From NCBI GenBank assembly GCA_963596955.1, contig CAVBPI010000001.1:1-44426 (forward strand): a stretch of DNA of 44,426 nt. Reading direction: 5' to 3'. Shown in pieces: positions 11,812 to 32,361 of this stretch. The DNA comes from a bacterium. GTDB taxonomy: Bacteria; Bacteroidota; Bacteroidia; Bacteroidales; UBA932. How positions within the stretch are numbered: position 1 is the first letter of the stretch; the number at the start of each line of letters is the position of its first letter. The notes under the pieces are model-generated. The model saw only the letters and a list, made by a program, of their open reading frames with translations. It made no database searches and was not told where the DNA came from. Position numbers and translations under genes: made by a program.

Positions 11812-12183
11812 ATGTCAGTAAAGGCACGTTTCATACGCAATGTCCTGGAGGAGGAAGGCGCGTCGATGCTCCGCCGCCAGAGTTCCGCCATTCTCTCCAA
11901 GCTGGAGACGCGCGCCGGCACGCTTGAGAAGTCCCGCTTAGTTTCGGTGGTCTCCGCGTCCGACTCGTTTGACGGCAAGCTGACCTTTCAGCACGTCGCC
12001 TACGAGCGCTTCCTCGACCTCCGCCGTCTCCGCTACGGCTCCAAGGTCGTTTCCCGCCGCCGTCGCATCCACAACCGCTACGTCTTCGGAGCCTACTCCC
12101 GCATCGCCGAGCGCCTCATGTACGAGTTCACCGACGAGGTCGCCGCCTCCATCCGCCAACAGATTGAAAATGAATCGCTCTGA
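11812..12183 (+). CDS. Hypothetical basic neck/tail-completion-like protein
   Basis: Arg-rich ORF at the end of the neck module. Confidence 0.5.
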   Translation: MSVKARFIRNVLEEEGASMLRRQSSAILSKLETRAGTLEKSRLVSVVSASDSFDGKLTFQHVAYERFLDLRRLRYGSKVVSRRRRIHNRYVFGAYSRIAERLMYEFTDEVAASIRQQIENESL

Positions 12184-12262
12184 CGCAAAGTGTTAATAAA
12201 TATATAAATAAATCAATAAATAAATTTTTGTTGCTATCTTTGCGGGACATTAGGGAGCATAT

Positions 12263-12823
12263 ATGGACGCATTTGAGCAGAAATCTTTATTGGAGGCGGT
12301 TCTTTACATTCTCAAGAGAACCGGGGGCATCGGATACTATCAGGTGTTCAAGATTCTCTATTTCGCGGAAAAGAACCATCTCGCGAAGTGGGGAAGCAGC
12401 ATGATTCCCGACCGTTTCTGCGCATTGGAAAACGGTCCTGTGCCTACATTCCTGTACGATGCTCTGCGCGGCCACAGCCGTCGTGAATGTCCCGGACTTC
12501 AGGAACTTCTGAAGGAAGGAGTCCAGAACGGCAGCGAGGACGCCTCCTACATTCTCACTGCACGCCGCGACCCGGACATGAACTATCTCTCAAAATCGGA
12601 AATAGCCGAACTCGACCGCTCGATTGATGAGAATCTGCCGCTTTCCTTTGCCGAGCTGAAGGACAAATCCCATGACAGCGCATGGAGTGAAGCCTATTAC
12701 AGCAAGCATTCGGGGCGCAAGTATATGGATCCGGTTCTCATGGCCGAAGCCGCCGATGCCGACAAAAGCACTATCGCCTATCTGAAGGACAGTCTTGAAC
12801 TTCAAAGCGCCTGTGCCCGATGA
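12263..12823 (+). CDS. Panacea (SocA/DUF4065) domain antitoxin
   Basis: KILYFAE...ALENGPVP...LKDKSH..AW motifs; own promoter TATCTTTG at 12235-12242. Confidence 0.8.
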   Translation: MDAFEQKSLLEAVLYILKRTGGIGYYQVFKILYFAEKNHLAKWGSSMIPDRFCALENGPVPTFLYDALRGHSRRECPGLQELLKEGVQNGSEDASYILTARRDPDMNYLSKSEIAELDRSIDENLPLSFAELKDKSHDSAWSEAYYSKHSGRKYMDPVLMAEAADADKSTIAYLKDSLELQSACAR

Positions 12824-13269
12824 ACCTTTCGGATTTCCTTTCCTCTGATGTCATCAATTCTCTGACCCGCTCGACGGTTTCTGTCGGTGACGTGTGGAGA
12901 ATCAGGCTTTATCCGGAAAACGGGATAACTCCGAAAGCCGGCGACAATTCCAGAAACAAGTTTCTTGTCATATTGGGCTTTGACGATGAGGGAAACATAT
13001 ATGGCGGCGTGGTAATCAATTCGAGAATCAACGACCGCATTCCCGTTGCCCTTCAGGACTTGCAGATGCCGATAAGGAAATCCGCCTACCCGTTCCTTGA
13101 CCACGATTCTTTCGTGGATTGTTCAAAGCTTATGGTCGTCCGCGCCGAAACCTTTGCCAAATGGGAGTTCAAAGGCATCATTTCACAGGACGACATAGAA
13201 CTCATCGCCGGCACCCTCCGCGAAAGCCCGCTCGTGACAGCCGCCACCCTTGCCCGATTCTCAATTTGA
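12820..13269 (+). CDS. Putative PemK/MazF-like toxin paired with the Panacea antitoxin
   Basis: ATGA overlap; VGDVW...RNKFLVILG...INS...FLDHDSFVDCS pattern. Confidence 0.55.
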   Translation: MNLSDFLSSDVINSLTRSTVSVGDVWRIRLYPENGITPKAGDNSRNKFLVILGFDDEGNIYGGVVINSRINDRIPVALQDLQMPIRKSAYPFLDHDSFVDCSKLMVVRAETFAKWEFKGIISQDDIELIAGTLRESPLVTAATLARFSI

Positions 13270-13410
13270 GGTTGATTTTTCGGAAAAGGCTTGCTTTTTT
13301 CGGAAATAGTTGCCACCTTTGTGGTGCGATATAAATACTTCTGGCAATTCTATTTTGCGGCTGCGTTATTTCCCGTAAATATAGATTGCTGACATATTCA
13401 TAGAGATTTT

Positions 13411-13505
13411 GCCCCTCTGTATGGTCGTCATCGGCGAAAGCCTTGACTGATATTTGCCGCAAGGCTGAAGTATTGTATCGCAGACCTACAACGGAGGGGC
13501 TTTTT
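13411..13505 (+). ncRNA. C4/CI-like cloverleaf antisense RNA, copy 1
   Basis: 10-bp outer stem 13411-20/13491-500, GAAA and GCAA tetraloop hairpins; loop 13467-82 is complementary to 13325-41 and to the ATG at 13519. Confidence 0.7.
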
Positions 13506-13518
13506 AATTTGGTTGGTA

Positions 13519-13791
13519 ATGCGATATACTGACGGAAAGCAGCCACGGCTCGACACTGGCAATGAAATCAAGGCGGATGAACTTATACTGAATGCTCGCC
13601 TTCAGCTCTACAGGCTCTCAGAAGATCTCATCAAATGGCAGGTCGCTCTCTATGACCGTGACAGGAGCCTGCACGAGAAGCTTGGCAAGGACTTCAACCG
13701 CGCCACCCTCGGCTTCTACGAACTCGATGAGGCACTGTCCTCCATTCTTCACAAAGACCTCGAACACAAGATAATTTTCTGCGAGGAGTGA
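13519..13791 (+). CDS. 90-aa helical protein, copy 1 (near-identical to 30230..30502)
   Basis: Duplicated ORF in which many of the differences are synonymous. Confidence 0.85.
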   Translation: MRYTDGKQPRLDTGNEIKADELILNARLQLYRLSEDLIKWQVALYDRDRSLHEKLGKDFNRATLGFYELDEALSSILHKDLEHKIIFCEE

Positions 13792-13844
13792 TTTCGGGGT
13801 GGTGTTTGTAAAATAGTTTGTATCTTGCAAAAAAATTGACACAA

Positions 13845-14162
13845 ATGTTTTGGTTCATATTATTTCTGATAATATTTTTCGCAGCGGAGTTCCCGATGCT
13901 GTTTGCCGGCTCTCTGGGAGTACTATATTGGGCAATAATCTTCTTTGGCAGTGGTTTTGTCCCAATAATAATTGTTCTCGTCATCCTTCCTGAACTGTAC
14001 AAACTCTTTTTCCGCTGGGAAAAATACTATGGAAATGAAATCTATGACAGAGGAGGCAGGAATGCTCTGCGTACAGTACTTTTATTGGCATTGATGCTCG
14101 GGATTGCATTGACCATAGTTTTGTGGCGCAAATTCCCCGAAATGGCGGAACATCTATTCTGA
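13845..14162 (+). CDS. Small multi-pass membrane protein (moron; possibly superinfection exclusion)
   Basis: About 3 hydrophobic segments, low GC, upstream TATCTTG promoter-like box. Confidence 0.6.
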   Translation: MFWFILFLIIFFAAEFPMLFAGSLGVLYWAIIFFGSGFVPIIIVLVILPELYKLFFRWEKYYGNEIYDRGGRNALRTVLLLALMLGIALTIVLWRKFPEMAEHLF

Positions 14163-14180
14163 CAACCATTTCTTTTTACT

Positions 14181-14215
14181 GTCCTTTTATAGCTGCTCTC
14201 GGGCAGCTATTTTTG
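14181..14215 (+). promoter_or_regulatory. Putative late promoter GTCCTTT-N20-TATTTTTG for the tape measure operon
   Basis: Motif and spacing conserved. Confidence 0.7.
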
Positions 14216-14235
14216 TGTCATAAAGTTATGATACG

Positions 14236-17200
14236 ATGGCAAAAACAGTCAGAGACGAACAACTTATTCTCAATGTTCTGGTGAACGGAGATGAGGCAAA
14301 GAAGCATATCCTTGATTTGGAGAAGTCGATTACAAGCAGTAGGGAAACTCTCAAAAGTCTCAAGGAAGAACAGTCAAAGTTTGTGAAGGGGAGCGAGAAT
14401 TGGAAACGCCTGAAGGCAGAAATTGATAATGTCAAAGGAAGCATAAAGTCTCAGCAGGGCGAACTGGCAAAAGCCAGAATGGAGCAGTCACGAATGAATG
14501 CGTCTGTTGATGACCTGCGAAAAAGAATACGCCTTCTTCGCGACACTCTCAGCAAGACAAATCCGAATACCAAAGAATGGCGTGTTTATAACGATGAACT
14601 TCGGCTGTCAAGAAACAGATTGGCACAATTGGAGGCGCAGTCTAAAGCGATGCATGGGACAATCTGCGGTTTGGCCGAAGCCGCTCAGAAATCTTGGGGA
14701 CCAGTGCTTTCGGGATGGCGAATTATACAGCGTTTTCGCGGACAGATTGAACAGGCGAAACAGTCGTGGCTGCAATATGACGAGGCGCTCGTTGATGCGA
14801 TGAAGACAACCGGATTGAGCCGCGACGAAATCGAGGAACTGAGCGCGGAACTCAAGAAGTTCGACACGCGAACCGCCCAGAATGAGTTGCTGTCGCTGGC
14901 TCGTGTGGGTGGTAAGTTGGGCATCTCCGGGAAGGAAGACTTGTTGGAGTTCGTTTCCGCTGCTGACAAAATCAATGTCGCGTTGAAAGAAGACCTTGGA
15001 GGAGACGCTGAGGCTGCCATAGGCCAGATTGGAAAACTCGTTGATATATTCCAGCTGAAGGGACAGATGGGTCTTGAAAAGGCGATGTTGTCCGTAGGTT
15101 CTGCAATCAATGAGCTCGGTGCCGCATCGACCGCTAACGAGGGCTACATCGTGAACTTCACCAACCGCCTCGCAGGTATAGCTCCGAACGCCAAAATCTC
15201 CATTGACAAAATCCTCGGCCTTGCATCCACCCTCGACGCGAACGCACAGGCAGCAGAGACCGCCGCAACAGCCATCGGTCAGACAATCACGGCAATGTTC
15301 AAGAAAACCGAGACATTCGCTCAGATTGCGAAGATGCCGTTCGAGGAGTTCCGTGACCTCCTGACAAATGACGTGAACGGTGCCCTCGTCAAAGTGCTTG
15401 AGGGGATGAAGGGCGACCAGGGATTGTTCGACATCGTGGCCGCCATGGACGAGATGCACTTGAACGGCCAGAGGGCAACGACCGTGCTCGGAGCTCTGGC
15501 CAACAATGTCGATATGCTCAAGACTCAGCAGCAGCTCGCGAACGAGGCCTTTCAGGAGGGCACGTCGCTGACCAACGAGTTCAACACGAAGAATGAATCC
15601 GCCACGGCCGTGCTCGAAAAGACAAAGAAGGCTCTTGAAGAGCAATGGGTTGAATTGGGGCAGAAATTGACACCTGCGCTCAATACGGCGACATCGGCAA
15701 CAACAGGAATCGTTTCTGTCGTTAATCAGGCAATTACTTTCGGAATTAAATATAAGGCGGTAATCATAGCAATCACTGCTGCATACGCGGCAATGAATAT
15801 AGTATCGGCCGCAAAGATTGCTTATGACAAACTTCGACATTTCTACAGTGCCCAGAATCGCGCTGACCTTCTAATGGAGGCAAGTCTGTTACAGGGCTGC
15901 ACCAAGGCAACGATGCTCCAATGTGCAGCTCAGAATCTTCTTGCTGGAAATGTAAAAGGTGCGGCATTGGCATTCAAAGCTTTGGGGAAAGCGATGTGGG
16001 CAAATCCCATCGGTCTTATTGCGGGAGCCGTTGCTGCGCTTGCAGCCGGTATTGGAACGATGATTTCCAAATCCCGCGAAGCCACCAAGGAACTCCGCGA
16101 ACTGAACCAAAGAACTGTTGACACGACATCCTCTTTCGTCAAGGCGCAGGCTGAAATAGATAAGGAGCGCAAGTCTCTTGAAGAACTGAAGGATGCGGCG
16201 ACAAATGCGGCGGAGGGCAGCGACGAGCGCAAGAGGGCAATCGACAAAATCAATGAACTCTACGGCGACTATCTCCCGCAGCTCCTTACGGAGAAGACTT
16301 CCAACGAGGAACTGGAGACGGCGTTGTCAAATGTAAACACTCAACTGGAGCGGAAAATCAAACTTCAGGCGCAGGAAAATGCGATGATGGAGGTCGAGCA
16401 GCATAAAATTGATTCCGTAAAGGCTACAGTCAATGCTTTGGCTGCGGAATACGAGAAGAAATTCAATAAAAAGATGCCGGCATCTGCGATAAGCAGTCTC
16501 ACATCAAGCCTTTCGGAGGCGTATGATTCAGGCTCTACAGCCAGAATGGATAAACCAGTAGAAAGCGTTTTTGAACAGAAATATCGTTGGGGTCACTCAG
16601 GGCGTTCCACATTTGGAGAAGAAGGTCGTATTCTTGACATACGCGATGAATTTCAAAAAGCCATAGATTCTGCAAATACACTGCGCTCCGTCATCAAAGG
16701 TCTCTATGGCGACCTCTCGTCTGAACCCTCCGGCAACACCGCACCGCTCGGAAGCCTTGTCGGAGGCGGAACGCCCGAAAACTCCGGAGGCGGAACGGGC
16801 GGCAACAGCAATTCAGGCGGCGATGACGACAAATTGCGGCTCGATAAGGATGAGGCATATCTTAGGGGAAAGATTGACCTTCAGAAGAAATATGCGGCGA
16901 AGGAGATTGCCACAAAGGATGAGCTGGACGCGCAGATTCTCCAGCTGGAGATTGACACTCTCGACCGCCGCATCAAGTCCGGAAAGGCGGGCGGGGACGA
17001 ACTCCTGAAGCTTCAGGAACAGCTTGCGGGAAAACGGGCGCAGCAGACGGAAAAAGAGAGCCGCACGGCTGAACAGCAGGCCAAGGAGGAGGCACGCAAG
17101 AAGGAGGAACAGGCCAAGACCGCGACACAGCTTGCCATTGATGCCGAGAAGGACTTGAAAGAAAAGGCGATAAAGGAGGAAAAACGGAGGTATGAGGCCG

Positions 17201-18675
17201 AAAAGAAAAAGGCGGAGGGCAATGCCGAGTCTCTGGAACTTGTGGAGAAAATCCATCAGAACAATCTCGACAAAATAGAGCTTGACGCCTTCAACCGCGA
17301 GGTCAAGCGGCTGGAGGACGAGCACAAGCTGAAGCGCACCCAAAAGGAGAACGCGCAGGCTGAAGAACTTTTGGCGTTCAAGGGCACGGAGGAGGAAAAG
17401 GCGGCCTTGAAGAGGAAGCACACGCAGGAACTTGCGGAGCTTGATGTCGAGTATCTGAAAGACTTGGAAGAAATGCTTCAGAAGGTGGTTGATGACAAAA
17501 CGCTTGAGGGAATGTCCGTAAGCCTTGACGAGGCCGACCTTCTGAAGATTAAACAGCAGCTTGCCGACATCATCAAGCGCAAGAACGCGGCGGCTGGTAC
17601 TGCACAGGACGCTTCGCAGGATCCGTCTGACAGCCCGAAGAAAGAAAGCCACTCTCTGAGGGATGGCACGGGCAAAGGCAGCCTGTTCGGTGTGTCGCAG
17701 GACGACTGGGAGGCGTTCTTTGCCAATCTCAAGGAGGGAAAGTTCGGCGCGGAGGACTTGCAGACGGTTGTCGCCGGCATCGGAGGTGCCGCACAGGAAG
17801 CCTTCAGTCTCGCTTCAAAGTTCATGGACTTGACAAAGAAGAAGGAAGACGCTCAGCTCAAGGAGTACAAGAAGAATCAGGACAACCGCAAGAACTCCCT
17901 CGAAAAGCGCCTGAACGCAGGTCTCATCACAGAGTCTCAGTACAATGCGCAGGTTGAGCAGATGGATGCCGAATATGAGGCTTATCAGGAAGAACTTGCG
18001 CTCAAACAGGCGAAGCGCGAAAAGACTCTGAACCTCACGCAGGCTATAATCAACACGGCTTTGGGTGTGACATCGACGCTCGCTCAGTGGGGCGTTCCGT
18101 GGGGACTCATTCCGGCCGGAATAATGGCCGCTATGGGCGCAGCAGAAATTGCCATCATAGCCTCGCAGCCTGTAACGGTCGGAGCAGAGGAGGGCGGTTA
18201 CATCAATATGAAGCGCCAACAGGACGGTAAGTCATTCAATGCCAAGCTCAATCCGTCGGCGCGCGGTTTTGTCACGCAGCCGACCGTCATAGTGGGCGAA
18301 AACGGCTCCGAGTATGTAATCCCGCACGAGGCTCTTGAGAATCCGAGCCTCCTCCCGATTATCTCCACCATGGAGACCGCCCGCCGCAACGGCAAGCTCC
18401 GCAGCCTGAACTTCAACGCGGTCTATCCGGCTACGGCGATGCCCGGGCGTGTCTCCGGCGGATTCATCGAGGGCGGAAACTCACAGATTGTGACCGCATC
18501 CGCCGACGGCACAGAAAGCTCCGCCACCGACGCGGCTCTCACGAAGGCCATCGAGAAGCTGACAAAGAAACTCGACGAGCCGATTACCGCCCGCGTGTCG
18601 ATGCTCGGCAAGGGCGGAATCAAGGAAACCGAGGAAAAGTATAACAAGCTCAGAAGAAGAGGACAGTTAGGATGA
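14236..18675 (+). CDS. Tail tape measure protein (TP901-type core)
   Basis: 1479 aa, coiled-coil; KTTGLS...TRTAQNELLSLA...GKLGI core; C-terminal VGENGSEYVIP. Confidence 0.92.
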   Translation: MAKTVRDEQLILNVLVNGDEAKKHILDLEKSITSSRETLKSLKEEQSKFVKGSENWKRLKAEIDNVKGSIKSQQGELAKARMEQSRMNASVDDLRKRIRLLRDTLSKTNPNTKEWRVYNDELRLSRNRLAQLEAQSKAMHGTICGLAEAAQKSWGPVLSGWRIIQRFRGQIEQAKQSWLQYDEALVDAMKTTGLSRDEIEELSAELKKFDTRTAQNELLSLARVGGKLGISGKEDLLEFVSAADKINVALKEDLGGDAEAAIGQIGKLVDIFQLKGQMGLEKAMLSVGSAINELGAASTANEGYIVNFTNRLAGIAPNAKISIDKILGLASTLDANAQAAETAATAIGQTITAMFKKTETFAQIAKMPFEEFRDLLTNDVNGALVKVLEGMKGDQGLFDIVAAMDEMHLNGQRATTVLGALANNVDMLKTQQQLANEAFQEGTSLTNEFNTKNESATAVLEKTKKALEEQWVELGQKLTPALNTATSATTGIVSVVNQAITFGIKYKAVIIAITAAYAAMNIVSAAKIAYDKLRHFYSAQNRADLLMEASLLQGCTKATMLQCAAQNLLAGNVKGAALAFKALGKAMWANPIGLIAGAVAALAAGIGTMISKSREATKELRELNQRTVDTTSSFVKAQAEIDKERKSLEELKDAATNAAEGSDERKRAIDKINELYGDYLPQLLTEKTSNEELETALSNVNTQLERKIKLQAQENAMMEVEQHKIDSVKATVNALAAEYEKKFNKKMPASAISSLTSSLSEAYDSGSTARMDKPVESVFEQKYRWGHSGRSTFGEEGRILDIRDEFQKAIDSANTLRSVIKGLYGDLSSEPSGNTAPLGSLVGGGTPENSGGGTGGNSNSGGDDDKLRLDKDEAYLRGKIDLQKKYAAKEIATKDELDAQILQLEIDTLDRRIKSGKAGGDELLKLQEQLAGKRAQQTEKESRTAEQQAKEEARKKEEQAKTATQLAIDAEKDLKEKAIKEEKRRYEAEKKKAEGNAESLELVEKIHQNNLDKIELDAFNREVKRLEDEHKLKRTQKENAQAEELLAFKGTEEEKAALKRKHTQELAELDVEYLKDLEEMLQKVVDDKTLEGMSVSLDEADLLKIKQQLADIIKRKNAAAGTAQDASQDPSDSPKKESHSLRDGTGKGSLFGVSQDDWEAFFANLKEGKFGAEDLQTVVAGIGGAAQEAFSLASKFMDLTKKKEDAQLKEYKKNQDNRKNSLEKRLNAGLITESQYNAQVEQMDAEYEAYQEELALKQAKREKTLNLTQAIINTALGVTSTLAQWGVPWGLIPAGIMAAMGAAEIAIIASQPVTVGAEEGGYINMKRQQDGKSFNAKLNPSARGFVTQPTVIVGENGSEYVIPHEALENPSLLPIISTMETARRNGKLRSLNFNAVYPATAMPGRVSGGFIEGGNSQIVTASADGTESSATDAALTKAIEKLTKKLDEPITARVSMLGKGGIKETEEKYNKLRRRGQLG

Positions 18676-29895: not shown

Positions 29896-29982
29896 CCCAC
29901 ACAACCATCGTATTGGTTTTTAATTGCGCCGGCCACTCGTGGGCTGTGGCCATGGACGGCATCCGAGAGGGTGCCGTCTTTT
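29894..29982 (+). ncRNA. Conserved 3' pseudoknot-like element plus terminator, copy B
   Basis: AACCCAC...GGCCAC-TCGTGGGCT-GTGGCC, then a terminator. Confidence 0.55.
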
Positions 29983-30123
29983 ATTTTTTATTTTTCTTGA
30001 AAGGCTTGCTTTTTTCAGAAATAGTTGTCACCTTTGCATCGTCCAGCACATACGAAGGCTTTCTATTTTGCGGCAACTCCTTTTTCTCGTAAACATAGAT
30101 TGCTAACATTTTATAGAGATTTT

Positions 30124-30215
30124 GCCCCTCTGTATGGTCGTCATTGGCGAAAGCCGTGACAGCATCTGCCGCAAGGCTTGTATGTGTTGGACAGACCTGC
30201 AACGGAGGGGCTTTT
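30124..30215 (+). ncRNA. C4/CI-like cloverleaf antisense RNA, copy 2
   Basis: Same scaffold as 13411; loop 30178-93 is complementary to 30041-55 and to the ATG region 30230-40. Confidence 0.7.
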
Positions 30216-30229
30216 ATTTTACATTAGCT

Positions 30230-30502
30230 ATGTCCAACACTAATGAACAGCAGCCACGGCTCGACACTGGCAATGAAATCAAGGCGGATGAACTCATACT
30301 TAATGCACGCCTTCAGCTCTACAAACTTTCAGAGGAACTCATCAAATGGCAGGTCGCCCTCTATGACCGGGACAGAAGCCTGCATGAGAAGCTTGGCAAG
30401 GACTTCAACCGCGCCACCCTCGGATTCTATGAACTCGATGAGGCGTTGTCCTCCATTCTTCACAAGGATCTCGAACACAAGATAATTTTCTGTCAAGACT
30501 GA
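30230..30502 (+). CDS. 90-aa helical protein, copy 2
   Basis: Near-identical to 13519..13791. Confidence 0.85.
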   Translation: MSNTNEQQPRLDTGNEIKADELILNARLQLYKLSEELIKWQVALYDRDRSLHEKLGKDFNRATLGFYELDEALSSILHKDLEHKIIFCQD

Positions 30503-30599: not shown

Positions 30600-30734
30600 A
30601 TGTTTAAGTTAAATCAAAAAGAAATCGAGCTGATTGAAGCAATCAGAGATTTCAGAAATTCCAGACACAACTACTCAGAACAACTCGAACAGATTGCAAG
30701 AGTTCTCTTTGAAGAGATGATGGAAAGTTACTAA
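30600..30734 (+). CDS. 44-aa protein upstream of DUF5053 copy C (not in the ORF track)
   Basis: MFKLNQKEIELIEAIRDFRNSRHNYSEQLEQIARVLFEEMMESY; promoter TATCTTTG just upstream. Confidence 0.65.
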   Translation: MFKLNQKEIELIEAIRDFRNSRHNYSEQLEQIARVLFEEMMESY

Positions 30735-31082: not shown

Positions 31083-31175
31083 GTTAAATTAAACATATCT
31101 TATTGTTTTTTGATTACACCGGCCACTCGTGGGTTGTGGTCACGGGCGACATCTCGTCAGAGGTGTCGCCTTTTT
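31066..31175 (+). ncRNA. Conserved 3' pseudoknot-like element plus terminator, copy C
   Basis: AACCCAC...GGCCAC-TCGTGGGTT-GTGGTC, then a terminator. Confidence 0.55.
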
Positions 31176-31197: not shown

Positions 31198-32361
31198 CTA
31201 TTCCGCCACCTTGAGAATATCCACGCCCTTCAGCTCCGCCGTGGCCTTGGAGGAGCGCTGGCAATAAATCGAGGTCATCGCGAGGCTGCTGTGGTCGGCC
31301 TGCTGCTGGATGAACGAGACGGGGACTCCGGCGGCCGCGAGGTTCGTGATGCCTGTGTCCTTGAGGCTGTAGAATGCCACCTCCATCGGGAAGCCGCATT
31401 CCTCCCGGACGCATTTGTTCCAGAACGTCGCAATCCTGCGCTCAGGAACGGCCGTCTTTCCGGGGCTGAAGTCGAAGTGGCTGTGGTCGCCGAACAGGAA
31501 GAGCTTAGTGTCGCTCAGGTCGAGACGGCGGACGAAAGGCATCATCGAGTCCGGGATGGTTCTTGTGGATGTGTTGTCGTTCTTCGCGATTTCCCCGCGC
31601 ACGAGAACCGTCTGCGAGTCGAGGCGTATGTCCGAACACCTGAGCATGGCAATCTCCTTGGGGCGCATCAGGCAGCAGTAACAGAGCATGCAGAGCACGA
31701 GATATTCCGGATTTTCCCGCTCTAAATATTTCCAGAGCCTCGAAAGTTCCGCATCCGACAGAATCCTCCTCTTTTTCTTCATCAGCTTCTTCGACTTGCG
31801 GCGAATGGAAGTGAACGGATTTTCCGGGATGTACGCGCGCTCGACCATCCAGTCGAACAGGACGCGGCAGAAGAGGAGATAGTTGTTGTAGGTCCGCGGC
31901 GAAATCTTCGGGTTGCTCTCGATGGACTCCATGAAGTCGATGGCCATCGTTCCGGTGAATCCGCAGGCGTAGGTGTTCTCGTCGCAGCCGTGCGCCTGTA
32001 GCCACTCCTTTATGGTTCTGATGAACGAATTGTAACTCCTCAGTGAGTTGGCCTCAAGTTCGCGCCGTTTCGCGTCGAGGAAGGCGTCGAAAGCCTCGAA
32101 CAGCCGCTTGTATGCCTTCGGGGCGTACTTCTCCACGAGCGGGTTCCAGCCCATCGCCAGCTTTTCAGAGAGCCGTCCCATGATGGCCTTTGCCATGGCC
32201 TTGCGTTCCCGCGGCGTGTCGCCTCGGTTCACCTTGATTCTCATCCGCTTGAGCTTCATCGTTCCGGGGTCCTGGACATAATAGGTGATGTACCAGATTT
32301 TGCCCTGCGTCAGTTTAGGGGGCGTATATTCAATGTAGGGGGTCGGTTTGAAGAATGACAT
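31198..32361 (-). CDS. int: Tyrosine recombinase / integrase
   Basis: LMRPKEI (R), AKN (K), YSLKDTG (variant HxxR), QADHSSLAMTSIY (H, Y). Confidence 0.92.
   Translation of the reverse strand: MSFFKPTPYIEYTPPKLTQGKIWYITYYVQDPGTMKLKRMRIKVNRGDTPRERKAMAKAIMGRLSEKLAMGWNPLVEKYAPKAYKRLFEAFDAFLDAKRRELEANSLRSYNSFIRTIKEWLQAHGCDENTYACGFTGTMAIDFMESIESNPKISPRTYNNYLLFCRVLFDWMVERAYIPENPFTSIRRKSKKLMKKKRRILSDAELSRLWKYLERENPEYLVLCMLCYCCLMRPKEIAMLRCSDIRLDSQTVLVRGEIAKNDNTSTRTIPDSMMPFVRRLDLSDTKLFLFGDHSHFDFSPGKTAVPERRIATFWNKCVREECGFPMEVAFYSLKDTGITNLAAAGVPVSFIQQQADHSSLAMTSIYCQRSSKATAELKGVDILKVAE

Follow-up and report, generated by a model that had tools for sequence, protein, structure and literature searches.

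The closest described systems are the C4 RNAs of phages P1 and P7, the CI RNA of phage P4 and c4-2 RNA. C4 and CI are released from a precursor by RNase P as stable RNAs of ∼70–80 nt that act in trans, and the a1b1 and a2b2 targets and the heteroimmunity of P1 and P7 are familiar features of the C4 system. P1 c4 RNA represses Ant synthesis in trans (PMC8546580), and P4 CI RNA, which derives from the leader of the operon under its control, pairs with seqA upstream and seqC downstream to bring about termination (PMC4825925). The same paper describes Gifsy-1 IsrK as a dual small and messenger RNA, with a short terminated isoform and a read-through mRNA made from one promoter (PMC4825925). The c4 and c4-a1b1 motifs have been listed as motifs of Proteobacteria and phages (PMC2864571), and c4-2 RNA is described in Weinberg et al. 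2017 (PMC5737381). For a c4-like immunity RNA in Bacteroides, literature searches yielded, apart from unrelated papers, only the Weinberg 2010 motif list and the 2017 c4-2 paper.

Here we analysed two gene leaders (13285–13530 and 30000–30240) in a 44,426-nt stretch of DNA, hereafter the window. Each consists of a promoter-like element and a ∼95-nt cloverleaf with a variable segment complementary to an upstream box (seqA) and a downstream box (seqC). Each element is probably a divergent antisense RNA of the c4 clan, closest to c4-2, that is built into the leader of the gene it controls and works by the mechanism proposed below.

The recognizable genes of the window are those of a temperate siphophage or prophage of the Bacteroidales type and include an S49 head protease, an endolysin and three DUF5053 genes. 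The following features place the two units:

12263–13269: SocA/Panacea pair, upstream neighbour of copy 1
13519..13791, plus strand: gene X copy 1, 90 aa, helical hairpin, no known family
13845..14162, plus strand: 105-aa hydrophobic protein encoded downstream of X copy 1; a hairpin with a T-run lies between it and the tape-measure gene
14236–18675: tape-measure gene
30230..30502, plus strand: gene X copy 2, 90 aa, 90% identical to copy 1
31198–32361, minus strand: integrase

Copy 1 lies between the SocA/Panacea pair and the tape-measure gene, and copy 2 is situated among the DUF5053 genes, close to the integrase. From ∼13285 and 30000 through the end of the 90-aa open reading frame the two units share 84% identity, and they are the only copies in the 2.77-Mb, 449-contig assembly, of which the window is one whole contig. 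The 90% identity of the two 90-aa proteins agrees with the near-identical downstream gene reported in a first-pass annotation of this DNA, and all strings that the annotation quoted were found in the window (13467–13482, 13325–13341 and 13519 for copy 1; 30178–30193, 30041–30055 and 30230 for copy 2). The 105-aa protein at 13845..14162 had no family match; its homologues come after X in the relatives L066–L068, and it is possibly the cargo of the copy 1 cassette. ARAGORN called no tRNA or tmRNA and no tRNA-like gene. A retron, a bridge RNA or a group II intron was rejected, as the neighbours of the unit include no reverse transcriptase or recombinase.

Relatives were collected with sequence patterns and with the protein. 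On viral contigs an exact 25-nt pattern gave 8 loci and a degenerate pattern 22; genome contigs gave 5 loci, metagenome contigs gave 28, and a protein-guided scan with X gave 58 viral loci. From 24 unique cloverleaves of the window's clade (clade A) we built a covariance model, R1. This model placed the RNA directly upstream of the X homologue in all 57 loci that have upstream DNA, the 58th locus beginning at the ATG. Many public gene calls extend 32 codons into the RNA, and the present assignment corrects them. R1 had exactly two matches in the window and only one further match, a weak one, in 150 genomes of the same family. The RNA matches in the genome collection fell in assemblies labelled Bacteroidaceae, Bacteroidales and Muribaculaceae, and in one bin labelled Gastranaerophilales. 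A blastn search of 50,697 phage records with the copy 1 unit returned no match. No RNA sequencing run was listed as containing the locus; two runs of doubtful type shared 8% of its sequence words. For comparison of the leaders we used 37 unique full leaders from phage and metagenome contigs. The parts of the two leaders in the window are as follows:

13291..13321, plus strand: promoter-like element of copy 1 (TTG 13291–13293, 20 nt, CACCTTTG 13314–13321)
13324..13341, plus strand: seqA of copy 1, the upstream target, predicted to form the 5′ end of the transcript and complementary to the variable segment over its full length
13349..13385, plus strand: P0 hairpin of copy 1, between seqA and the cloverleaf, assigned by folding
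13411..13505, plus strand: cloverleaf RNA of copy 1 (P1 13411–13420 with 13491–13500; U-tract 13501–13505; R1 score 104.7 bits)
13475..13482, plus strand: seed of copy 1, GUAUCGCA, the single-stranded 8 nt adjoining the 3′ strand of P2
13513..13532, plus strand: translation-initiation hairpin of copy 1, with the AUG and seqC (13519–13529) in its loop
30006..30036, plus strand: promoter-like element of copy 2 (TTG 30006–30008, 20 nt, CACCTTTG 30029–30036)
30040..30056, plus strand: seqA of copy 2, complementary to the copy 2 loop
30124..30215, plus strand: cloverleaf RNA of copy 2 (P1 30124–30133 with 30202–30211; U-tract 30212–30215; R1 score 106.9 bits)
30186..30193, plus strand: seed of copy 2, GUUGGACA, single-stranded 8 nt
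30230..30240, plus strand: seqC of copy 2, comprising the AUG and codons 2–3

The promoter that the first-pass annotation assigned to both leaders was recovered as a putative element by motif, TTG-N20-CACCTTTG in each copy. A TTG-N19–20-NAnnTTTG motif, which we take to fit the Bacteroides −33/−7 promoter consensus, is present in 36 of the 37 unique leaders and ends 2–5 nt 5′ of seqA; seqA would thus be the extreme 5′ end of the RNA. In front of P1, the spacing and −7 match of a possible internal promoter were inconsistent when judged by eye. An upstream open reading frame at seqA was rejected because the GTG/ATG is missing in w2, L079 and L121. The core CGG/CCG stem of P0 is kept in all 37 leaders. 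At the other end of the leader, the helix of the initiation hairpin (alignment columns 242–247 with 258–263) is kept in 32–37 of 37 leaders. Its 6 bp read ATTAGT/ACTAAT in most members, with a compensated variant in copy 1. This hairpin, which displays the AUG and seqC, accounts for the conserved Thr-Asn at codons 4–5, and the position of seqC on codons 2–3 accounts for the varied protein starts (MRY, MSN, MSY, MHY, MRT, MNY, MCK and others).

The cloverleaf is the minimum-free-energy fold of both ∼95-nt cores (−40.4 and −41.5 kcal/mol), with z-scores of −4.5 and −4.2 and none of 200 shuffles folding equally well. Within P1, copy 1 has P2 (GGUC/GACC), P3 with a GAAA hairpin and an extended P4 with a GCAA loop; every clade-A member has either GCAA or GUAA as its P4 loop. 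Among the 24 clade-A sequences 8 of the 23 pairs showed compensatory changes. Pooling both clades raised this to 16 of 23, with 98.5% of cells paired and 0/500 shuffles matching, in an alignment that was fitted to the model and therefore favours the structure. The folds and the covariation support the architecture given by the first-pass annotation, a 10-bp outer stem with a U-tract, a GGUC/GACC helix and GAAA and GCAA hairpins. The single-stranded segment of 16 nt that it described has to be divided: the 3′ 8 nt are indeed unpaired, but the 5′ half pairs with the P3–P4 linker and lengthens P4. In this P4 extension 96.5% of cells are paired and three pairs are compensatory; 0/500 shuffles reached this value and slid controls gave 25–60%. 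Exactly 8 nt adjoining the 3′ strand of P2 were left unpaired in 21 of 24 folds.

We then numbered the positions of the variable segment from its 3′ end and compared it with its two boxes. Nineteen distinct variable segments occur among the 37 unique leaders. In 24 of 24 unique triples, seed positions 3–7 form Watson–Crick pairs with seqA as well as with seqC, and each position shows two or three pair types, whereas segment positions 10–16 have seqA as their only partner. Cognate loop:seqA duplexes had a mean energy of −21.8 kcal/mol compared with −10.4 kcal/mol for non-cognate combinations, and the corresponding values for loop:seqC were −13.5 and −6.7 kcal/mol; for either duplex, 0/100,000 permutations reached the observed value. 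The first-pass annotation had suggested combining a covariance model with an analysis of loop/target covariation; here cognate duplexes proved about twice as stable as non-cognate ones, and the co-varying, orthogonal specificity that it saw in two copies extends as a three-way covariation across 19 types. The predicted specificity resides in seed positions 3–7.

In the window, copy 1 seqA forms 14–16 bp with its own loop (−19.0 kcal/mol) and reaches −9 kcal/mol with the copy 2 loop, and copy 2 seqA reaches −24.5 kcal/mol with its own loop and −9 kcal/mol with that of copy 1. Cross-energies for seqC were −4 and −6 kcal/mol compared with cognate values of −11 and −16.4 kcal/mol (copy 2 seqC: −16.4 kcal/mol with its own loop, −4 kcal/mol with the copy 1 loop). 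By predicted pairing the two copies are mutually orthogonal, and each should control only its own downstream gene.

Since seqA and seqC are direct repeats over ∼9 nt, and seqA often starts with GTG or ATG like a copied start, the boxes might be read as leftovers of duplication or insertion, that is, direct repeats or target-site duplications that flank an inserted RNA gene and have no pairing function. This is scarcely credible. The third, complementary segment changes along with the boxes in 24 of 24 triples, seqA reaches 7–8 nt beyond seqC, exactly as far as the complementary loop does, and the same logic recurs in the unrelated sequences of clade B and of c4-2 (see below).

Comparison with Rfam C4 families, which the first-pass annotation had proposed as a check, gave a divided result. 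At gathering thresholds nothing in the window matched Rfam. At permissive thresholds copy 2 matched c4-2 (RF02944, clan CL00128) with 32.8 bits, below the cut-off of 41 bits (E = 0.0041 in 52 kb and 0.00056 in 7 kb), while copy 1 had no c4-2 match even at E≤10. Infernal found no match to C4 proper (RF01695) at E≤10 for copy 1 or at E≤5 for the whole window plus seven relatives. Two clade-B RNAs also scored against c4-2 below threshold (L131, 31.0 bits; L169, 25.9 bits). These three matches were full-length, with alignments covering model positions 1–79 of 79 and the same helices.

In the reverse direction, the top R1 match fell exactly on the RNA in 7 of 7 genuine c4-2 loci (18.6–26.8 bits, E = 6e-5 to 8e-3). 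Genuine c4-2 RNAs, scoring 53.6–77.5 bits, occurred in 2 of 151 sampled Bacteroidota genomes, one of which has six copies, and in 0 of 14 control genomes. These loci, too, have matching boxes that vary from copy to copy, placed upstream of the RNA and immediately 5′ of the start codon of a 77-aa gene. The window family shares with c4-2 the 10-bp P1, UAUGG junction, 4-bp P2, P3 with GAAA, P4, single strand, P2′, UAA, P1′ and U tail, with UAUGG, GAAA and ACC..UAA as common landmarks, as well as its presence in Bacteroidia and the target boxes upstream and at the start of a small (77-aa in c4-2) downstream gene. It differs in recognition. The c4-2 RNA recognizes its targets through two separate elements, the UAGGA of the single strand and the loop of P4, whereas the window family uses one contiguous stretch made of the 8-nt seed and the 3′ strand of P4, and its P4 loop is an invariant GNRA-type tetraloop. 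The downstream box, which in c4-2 lies just 5′ of the ATG, here comprises the ATG and codons 2–3 inside a hairpin loop. On this sequence evidence we place the element in the c4 clan as a divergent sub-family whose nearest relative is c4-2, from which the Rfam cut-off excludes it. Its recognition design is different, and its specificity code is richly documented. The Bacteroidales analogue of C4 that the first-pass annotation envisaged is thus supported as a C4-like RNA and is less new than was assumed, because a Bacteroidia branch, c4-2, was already in Rfam.

A looser pattern uncovered seven divergent RNAs (L131, which is identical to L144, L133, L141, L153, L162, L169 and L125), which we call clade B; L125 comes from a genome belonging to the same family. 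In these RNAs P1 differs in sequence and P2 is GGUG/CACC, and R1 recognizes all seven with 26.8–42.4 bits. Clade B has the layout of clade A, a promoter, seqA, the seed and seqC in a hairpin loop, and each member has its own specificity. In all four loci that have downstream DNA the gene directly behind the RNA is an anti-repressor, the class of gene under C4 control in P1: one carries KilA-N (E = 1.4e-21), the second Bro-N (E = 1.7e-26, with a match to the PHROG 'anti-repressor Ant' at 2e-49), and the third and fourth ORF6N/Bro-N. The analogy to icd/kil-antirepressor control that had been drawn for the window would apply to clade B; the window gene itself is not icd, kil or a recognizable anti-repressor.

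The likeness to P1/P7 C4 covers an RNA that is co-transcribed with its target (a prediction here), complementary sites upstream and downstream of it, a downstream site overlapping the initiation region of the first open reading frame and, in clade B, a place in front of anti-repressor genes, C4 itself controlling an anti-repressor operon; in P1/P7 differences in specificity define immunity types. The differences are the lack of an RF01695 match, the other host phylum, the single seed and, in the window, a downstream gene that is neither icd nor ant. With P4 CI the element shares one antisense segment and one target on each side of it within the same transcript, and modelled nested folds suggest that seqA pairing decides whether the terminator forms, as in CI. 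It differs from CI in having no sequence or model match to it, in that termination is predicted from sequence, and in that the outer stem of the RNA would itself serve as the terminator. The Gifsy-1 IsrK locus is similar in lying upstream of an anti-repressor and in producing short and read-through forms (PMC4825925). It differs in that IsrK is reported there to activate translation of the long isoform in trans (PMC4825925), and no homology to it was detected. In the present case the seed covers the AUG, which makes repression the likelier direction. A C4/CI-like antisense RNA with an upstream and a downstream target, as the first-pass annotation proposed, is supported by the covariation, the sub-threshold c4-2 matches, the placement of R1 on genuine c4-2 RNAs, the clade-B anti-repressors and the occurrence of two specificities on every two-copy contig.

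The gene under control was characterized further. The predicted structure of X (pLDDT 76.9) is a hairpin of two helices preceded by a disordered N-terminus. Searches of Pfam, PHROG and PADLOC assigned X to no family, the protein atlas gave no match, 95 of its 96 relatives were without a Pfam domain, and the few relatives named in their sources are hypothetical or uncharacterized proteins. Foldseek searches of PDB and BFVD with X returned nothing at E≤0.001, only generic helical hairpins. Alignment of X with the 77-aa protein after genuine c4-2 gave an hhalign E of 0.035 and a probability of 1.5%. Homology between the two is not established, because only the C-terminal FY.L.E...IL motif aligns.

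The promoter–RNA–X unit is found before the tape-measure gene, directly after it, or beside DUF5053, HTH or integrase genes. A role of X as the tail assembly chaperone that precedes the tape-measure gene was rejected because elsewhere the unit comes after the tape-measure gene or beside the integrase. Where the unit follows the tape-measure gene, 0.8–3 kb of variable cargo comes next, which encodes lipoproteins, components A and C of PD-T4-9 (PADLOC E = 1e-46 to 1e-58), Panacea with a MazF-like protein, or HEPN with a SecB-like protein. A HicA/HicB-like pair is found ∼1 kb beyond X in L072, L079 and L081, all three of them integrase-proximal loci. These arrangements suggest that X in the clade of the window is frequently the first gene ahead of prophage defence or toxin–antitoxin cargo.

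With such neighbours, Panacea plus the MazF-like protein, HicA/HicB and PD-T4-9, the unit could itself be an addiction or abortive-infection module similar to type I toxin–antitoxin systems, with X as the toxin, the cloverleaf as the RNA antitoxin and diversification serving to avoid cross-neutralization. Diversification of specificity between co-resident copies is known from the Sib/Ibs families. X is small and always coupled to the RNA (57/57), the RNA pairs over the AUG, and the P1 c4 operon starts with the growth-inhibiting small protein Icd (PMC11897509). We nevertheless regard this reading as unlikely: X is predicted to be a soluble two-helix hairpin rather than a membrane peptide, it belongs to no PADLOC, Pfam or PHROG family, and in clade B the same RNA fronts anti-repressors, not toxins. 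The toxin–antitoxin reading bears on what X does and can hold alongside the RNA mechanism.

For the c4-type RNA we propose the following mechanism. A transcript would start at or just before seqA from the Bacteroides-type promoter and would carry, in order, seqA, P0, the ∼95-nt cloverleaf with its 8-nt seed, the U-tract and a weak hairpin displaying the AUG and seqC. As with C4 and CI, 5′ trimming together with termination at P1 and the U-tract would set the cloverleaf free. Its seed would then form a kissing interaction with the seqC loop and block initiation of X. Bacteroidetes have no Shine–Dalgarno sequence and need an open start region for initiation. On the upstream side, seqA would pair with the seed and the 3′ strand of P4 over 14–16 bp and in cis would compete with the cloverleaf and terminator, thus acting as an anti-terminator and a mask of the seed. 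Mature RNA bound to a nascent seqA would force the terminator to form, giving negative feedback like that of P4 CI. We infer the trans action, the processing and the biological role.

When 11 full leaders were folded with a pseudoknot-free model, the conformer with seqA paired to the loop was the minimum-free-energy structure in 10, the exception being copy 1; this conformer lies 5–14.5 kcal/mol below the best fold with a cloverleaf, and in it P1 and P2 are open. The result favours a mechanism resembling that of P4 CI and of plasmid attenuators. Because nested folding takes no account of pseudoknots, the model itself may have produced the apparent anti-terminator role of seqA. In clade A, P1 is followed by the U-tract and the two resemble a terminator, whereas the U-tract is weak in some clade-B members, with no good U-tract after P1, indicating that termination is not a universal feature. 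The pseudoknot-free folding and the clade-B members without a clear U-tract make the termination half of the mechanism weaker than the translational half.

The same conformers would be expected of a leader switch acting purely in cis, in which the seed toggles between seqA, with the start open and the terminator disrupted, and seqC, with the start blocked, and transcription speed, a protein or RNA decay sets the balance. All three segments lie on one predicted transcript, nested folding yields two alternative conformers, and compensatory evolution is expected for cis pairing too. As the three pairing partners share one transcript, the covariation fits a purely cis switch just as well. Such a switch gives no reason for specificity to diversify, and yet the three pairing segments are the most variable part of the leader (0.80–0.87 bits per column, compared with 0.35–0.39 for the scaffold; the P0 hairpin has 0.73). 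It is further at odds with the different seeds found within each pair on all three two-copy phage contigs (the window, L078/L079 and L075/L080). The c4-clan relatives, moreover, act in trans, as known experimentally only for P1/P7 C4 and P4 CI. Taking these points together we consider a purely cis switch unlikely, and the c4-type antisense RNA acting in trans remains our preferred reading.

A more far-reaching extension of the trans-acting RNA is an RNA 'identity code' that gates prophage defence. The cloverleaf would silence X and its cargo through seqA, where it forces termination, and through seqC, where it blocks initiation, and the seqA decoys of a superinfecting relative of the same specificity would titrate the RNA and switch the cassette on. 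This is a speculative reading that we think unlikely to hold as a whole. If it were true, the anti-repressor clade would induce the prophage instead, the rapid turnover of the 5-nt core would reflect an arms race between related Bacteroidales phages, and the two orthogonal channels of one phage would watch two rival classes.

The c4-type reading extends RNA-based phage immunity of the c4/CI type to the temperate siphophages of gut Bacteroidales, for which there are no genetic tools and lysogeny control is poorly known. The code that comes with it is readable: five seed positions vary, the targets match them, and at least 19 alleles occur in nature. Because the code is clean, heteroimmunity groups, cross-talk between co-resident elements and the connection of the RNA with anti-repressors and with defence cargo become directly testable. 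Tools for translation control in Bacteroides are scarce because there is no Shine–Dalgarno sequence, and the natural orthogonal sets found here could be parts for Bacteroides RNA regulators.

The leader of this RNA family recurs on other genes. At three related loci (L020, L028 and L035), an X-type leader and the first ∼14 codons (M-x-x-TNEQQPRLHTG) are joined to an unrelated protein body of ∼100-118 aa for which no Pfam family was found. Leader and N-terminal codons therefore act together as a portable module.

In the commonest subfamily of X, the small helical protein encoded directly after the cloverleaf RNA, the Ala-rich codons 8-12 form a perfect hairpin, exemplified by locus L073:

L073:7022-7036 (X ORF positions +22 to +36), GCGGC/GCCGC hairpin

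The loop of this hairpin differs among copies in L073-type loci, and the element may be a feature of the RNA rather than of the protein. Many entries for X in public protein records are 127 aa long, their start having been called 32 codons too far upstream, within the cloverleaf, which places the RNA inside an annotated coding sequence.

Copy 2 lies in a cassette consisting of the RNA, X, a 44-aa ORF and a DUF5053 gene, which is flanked on both sides by a direct repeat (two copies, 82% identical):

29907-29963, 57-nt direct repeat
30600-30734, 44-aa ORF
31097-31153, 57-nt direct repeat

Each repeat copy is located 3′ of a different one of two DUF5053 genes. The repeat looks like a duplicated gene end with its terminator, and may mark a point of cassette insertion.

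Copy 1 is immediately preceded by a two-gene unit:

12263-13269, SocA/Panacea-domain gene (E 1.6e-17) and overlapping 149-aa ORF

The 149-aa ORF matched no family; in relatives, the partner of the Panacea gene weakly matches PemK/MazF. Homologues of the pair are found there either 3′ of X or ahead of the tape-measure gene. The Panacea pair is a mobile toxin-antitoxin-like moron. Between a 123-aa gene at 11812-12183 and the tape-measure gene (stretch 11812-14236) there is no obvious tail-assembly-chaperone pair; the Panacea pair, the RNA, X and the gene for a hydrophobic protein of 105 aa take up this space.

Small ORFs also accompany the divergent clade-B RNAs, where in three of four loci the final part of the anti-repressor gene overlaps with a 70-72-aa ORF:

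L195:1055-1267, minus strand
L196:3719-3937, minus strand
L198:4236-4454, minus strand

These three ORFs belong to no known family and resemble one another by eye. At the fourth locus, L197, a 77-aa ORF without a family lies ∼200 nt further on.

Genome G206 carries six copies of c4-2, the nearest known RNA family, with target boxes that are not alike. At one locus of this genome (L203:1501-2748), an NgoBV-type restriction endonuclease gene (Pfam E 7.8e-63) comes after a genuine c4-2 RNA and the 77-aa gene that belongs to it. As in the RNA family of the window, c4-2 modules may stand at the head of defence genes.
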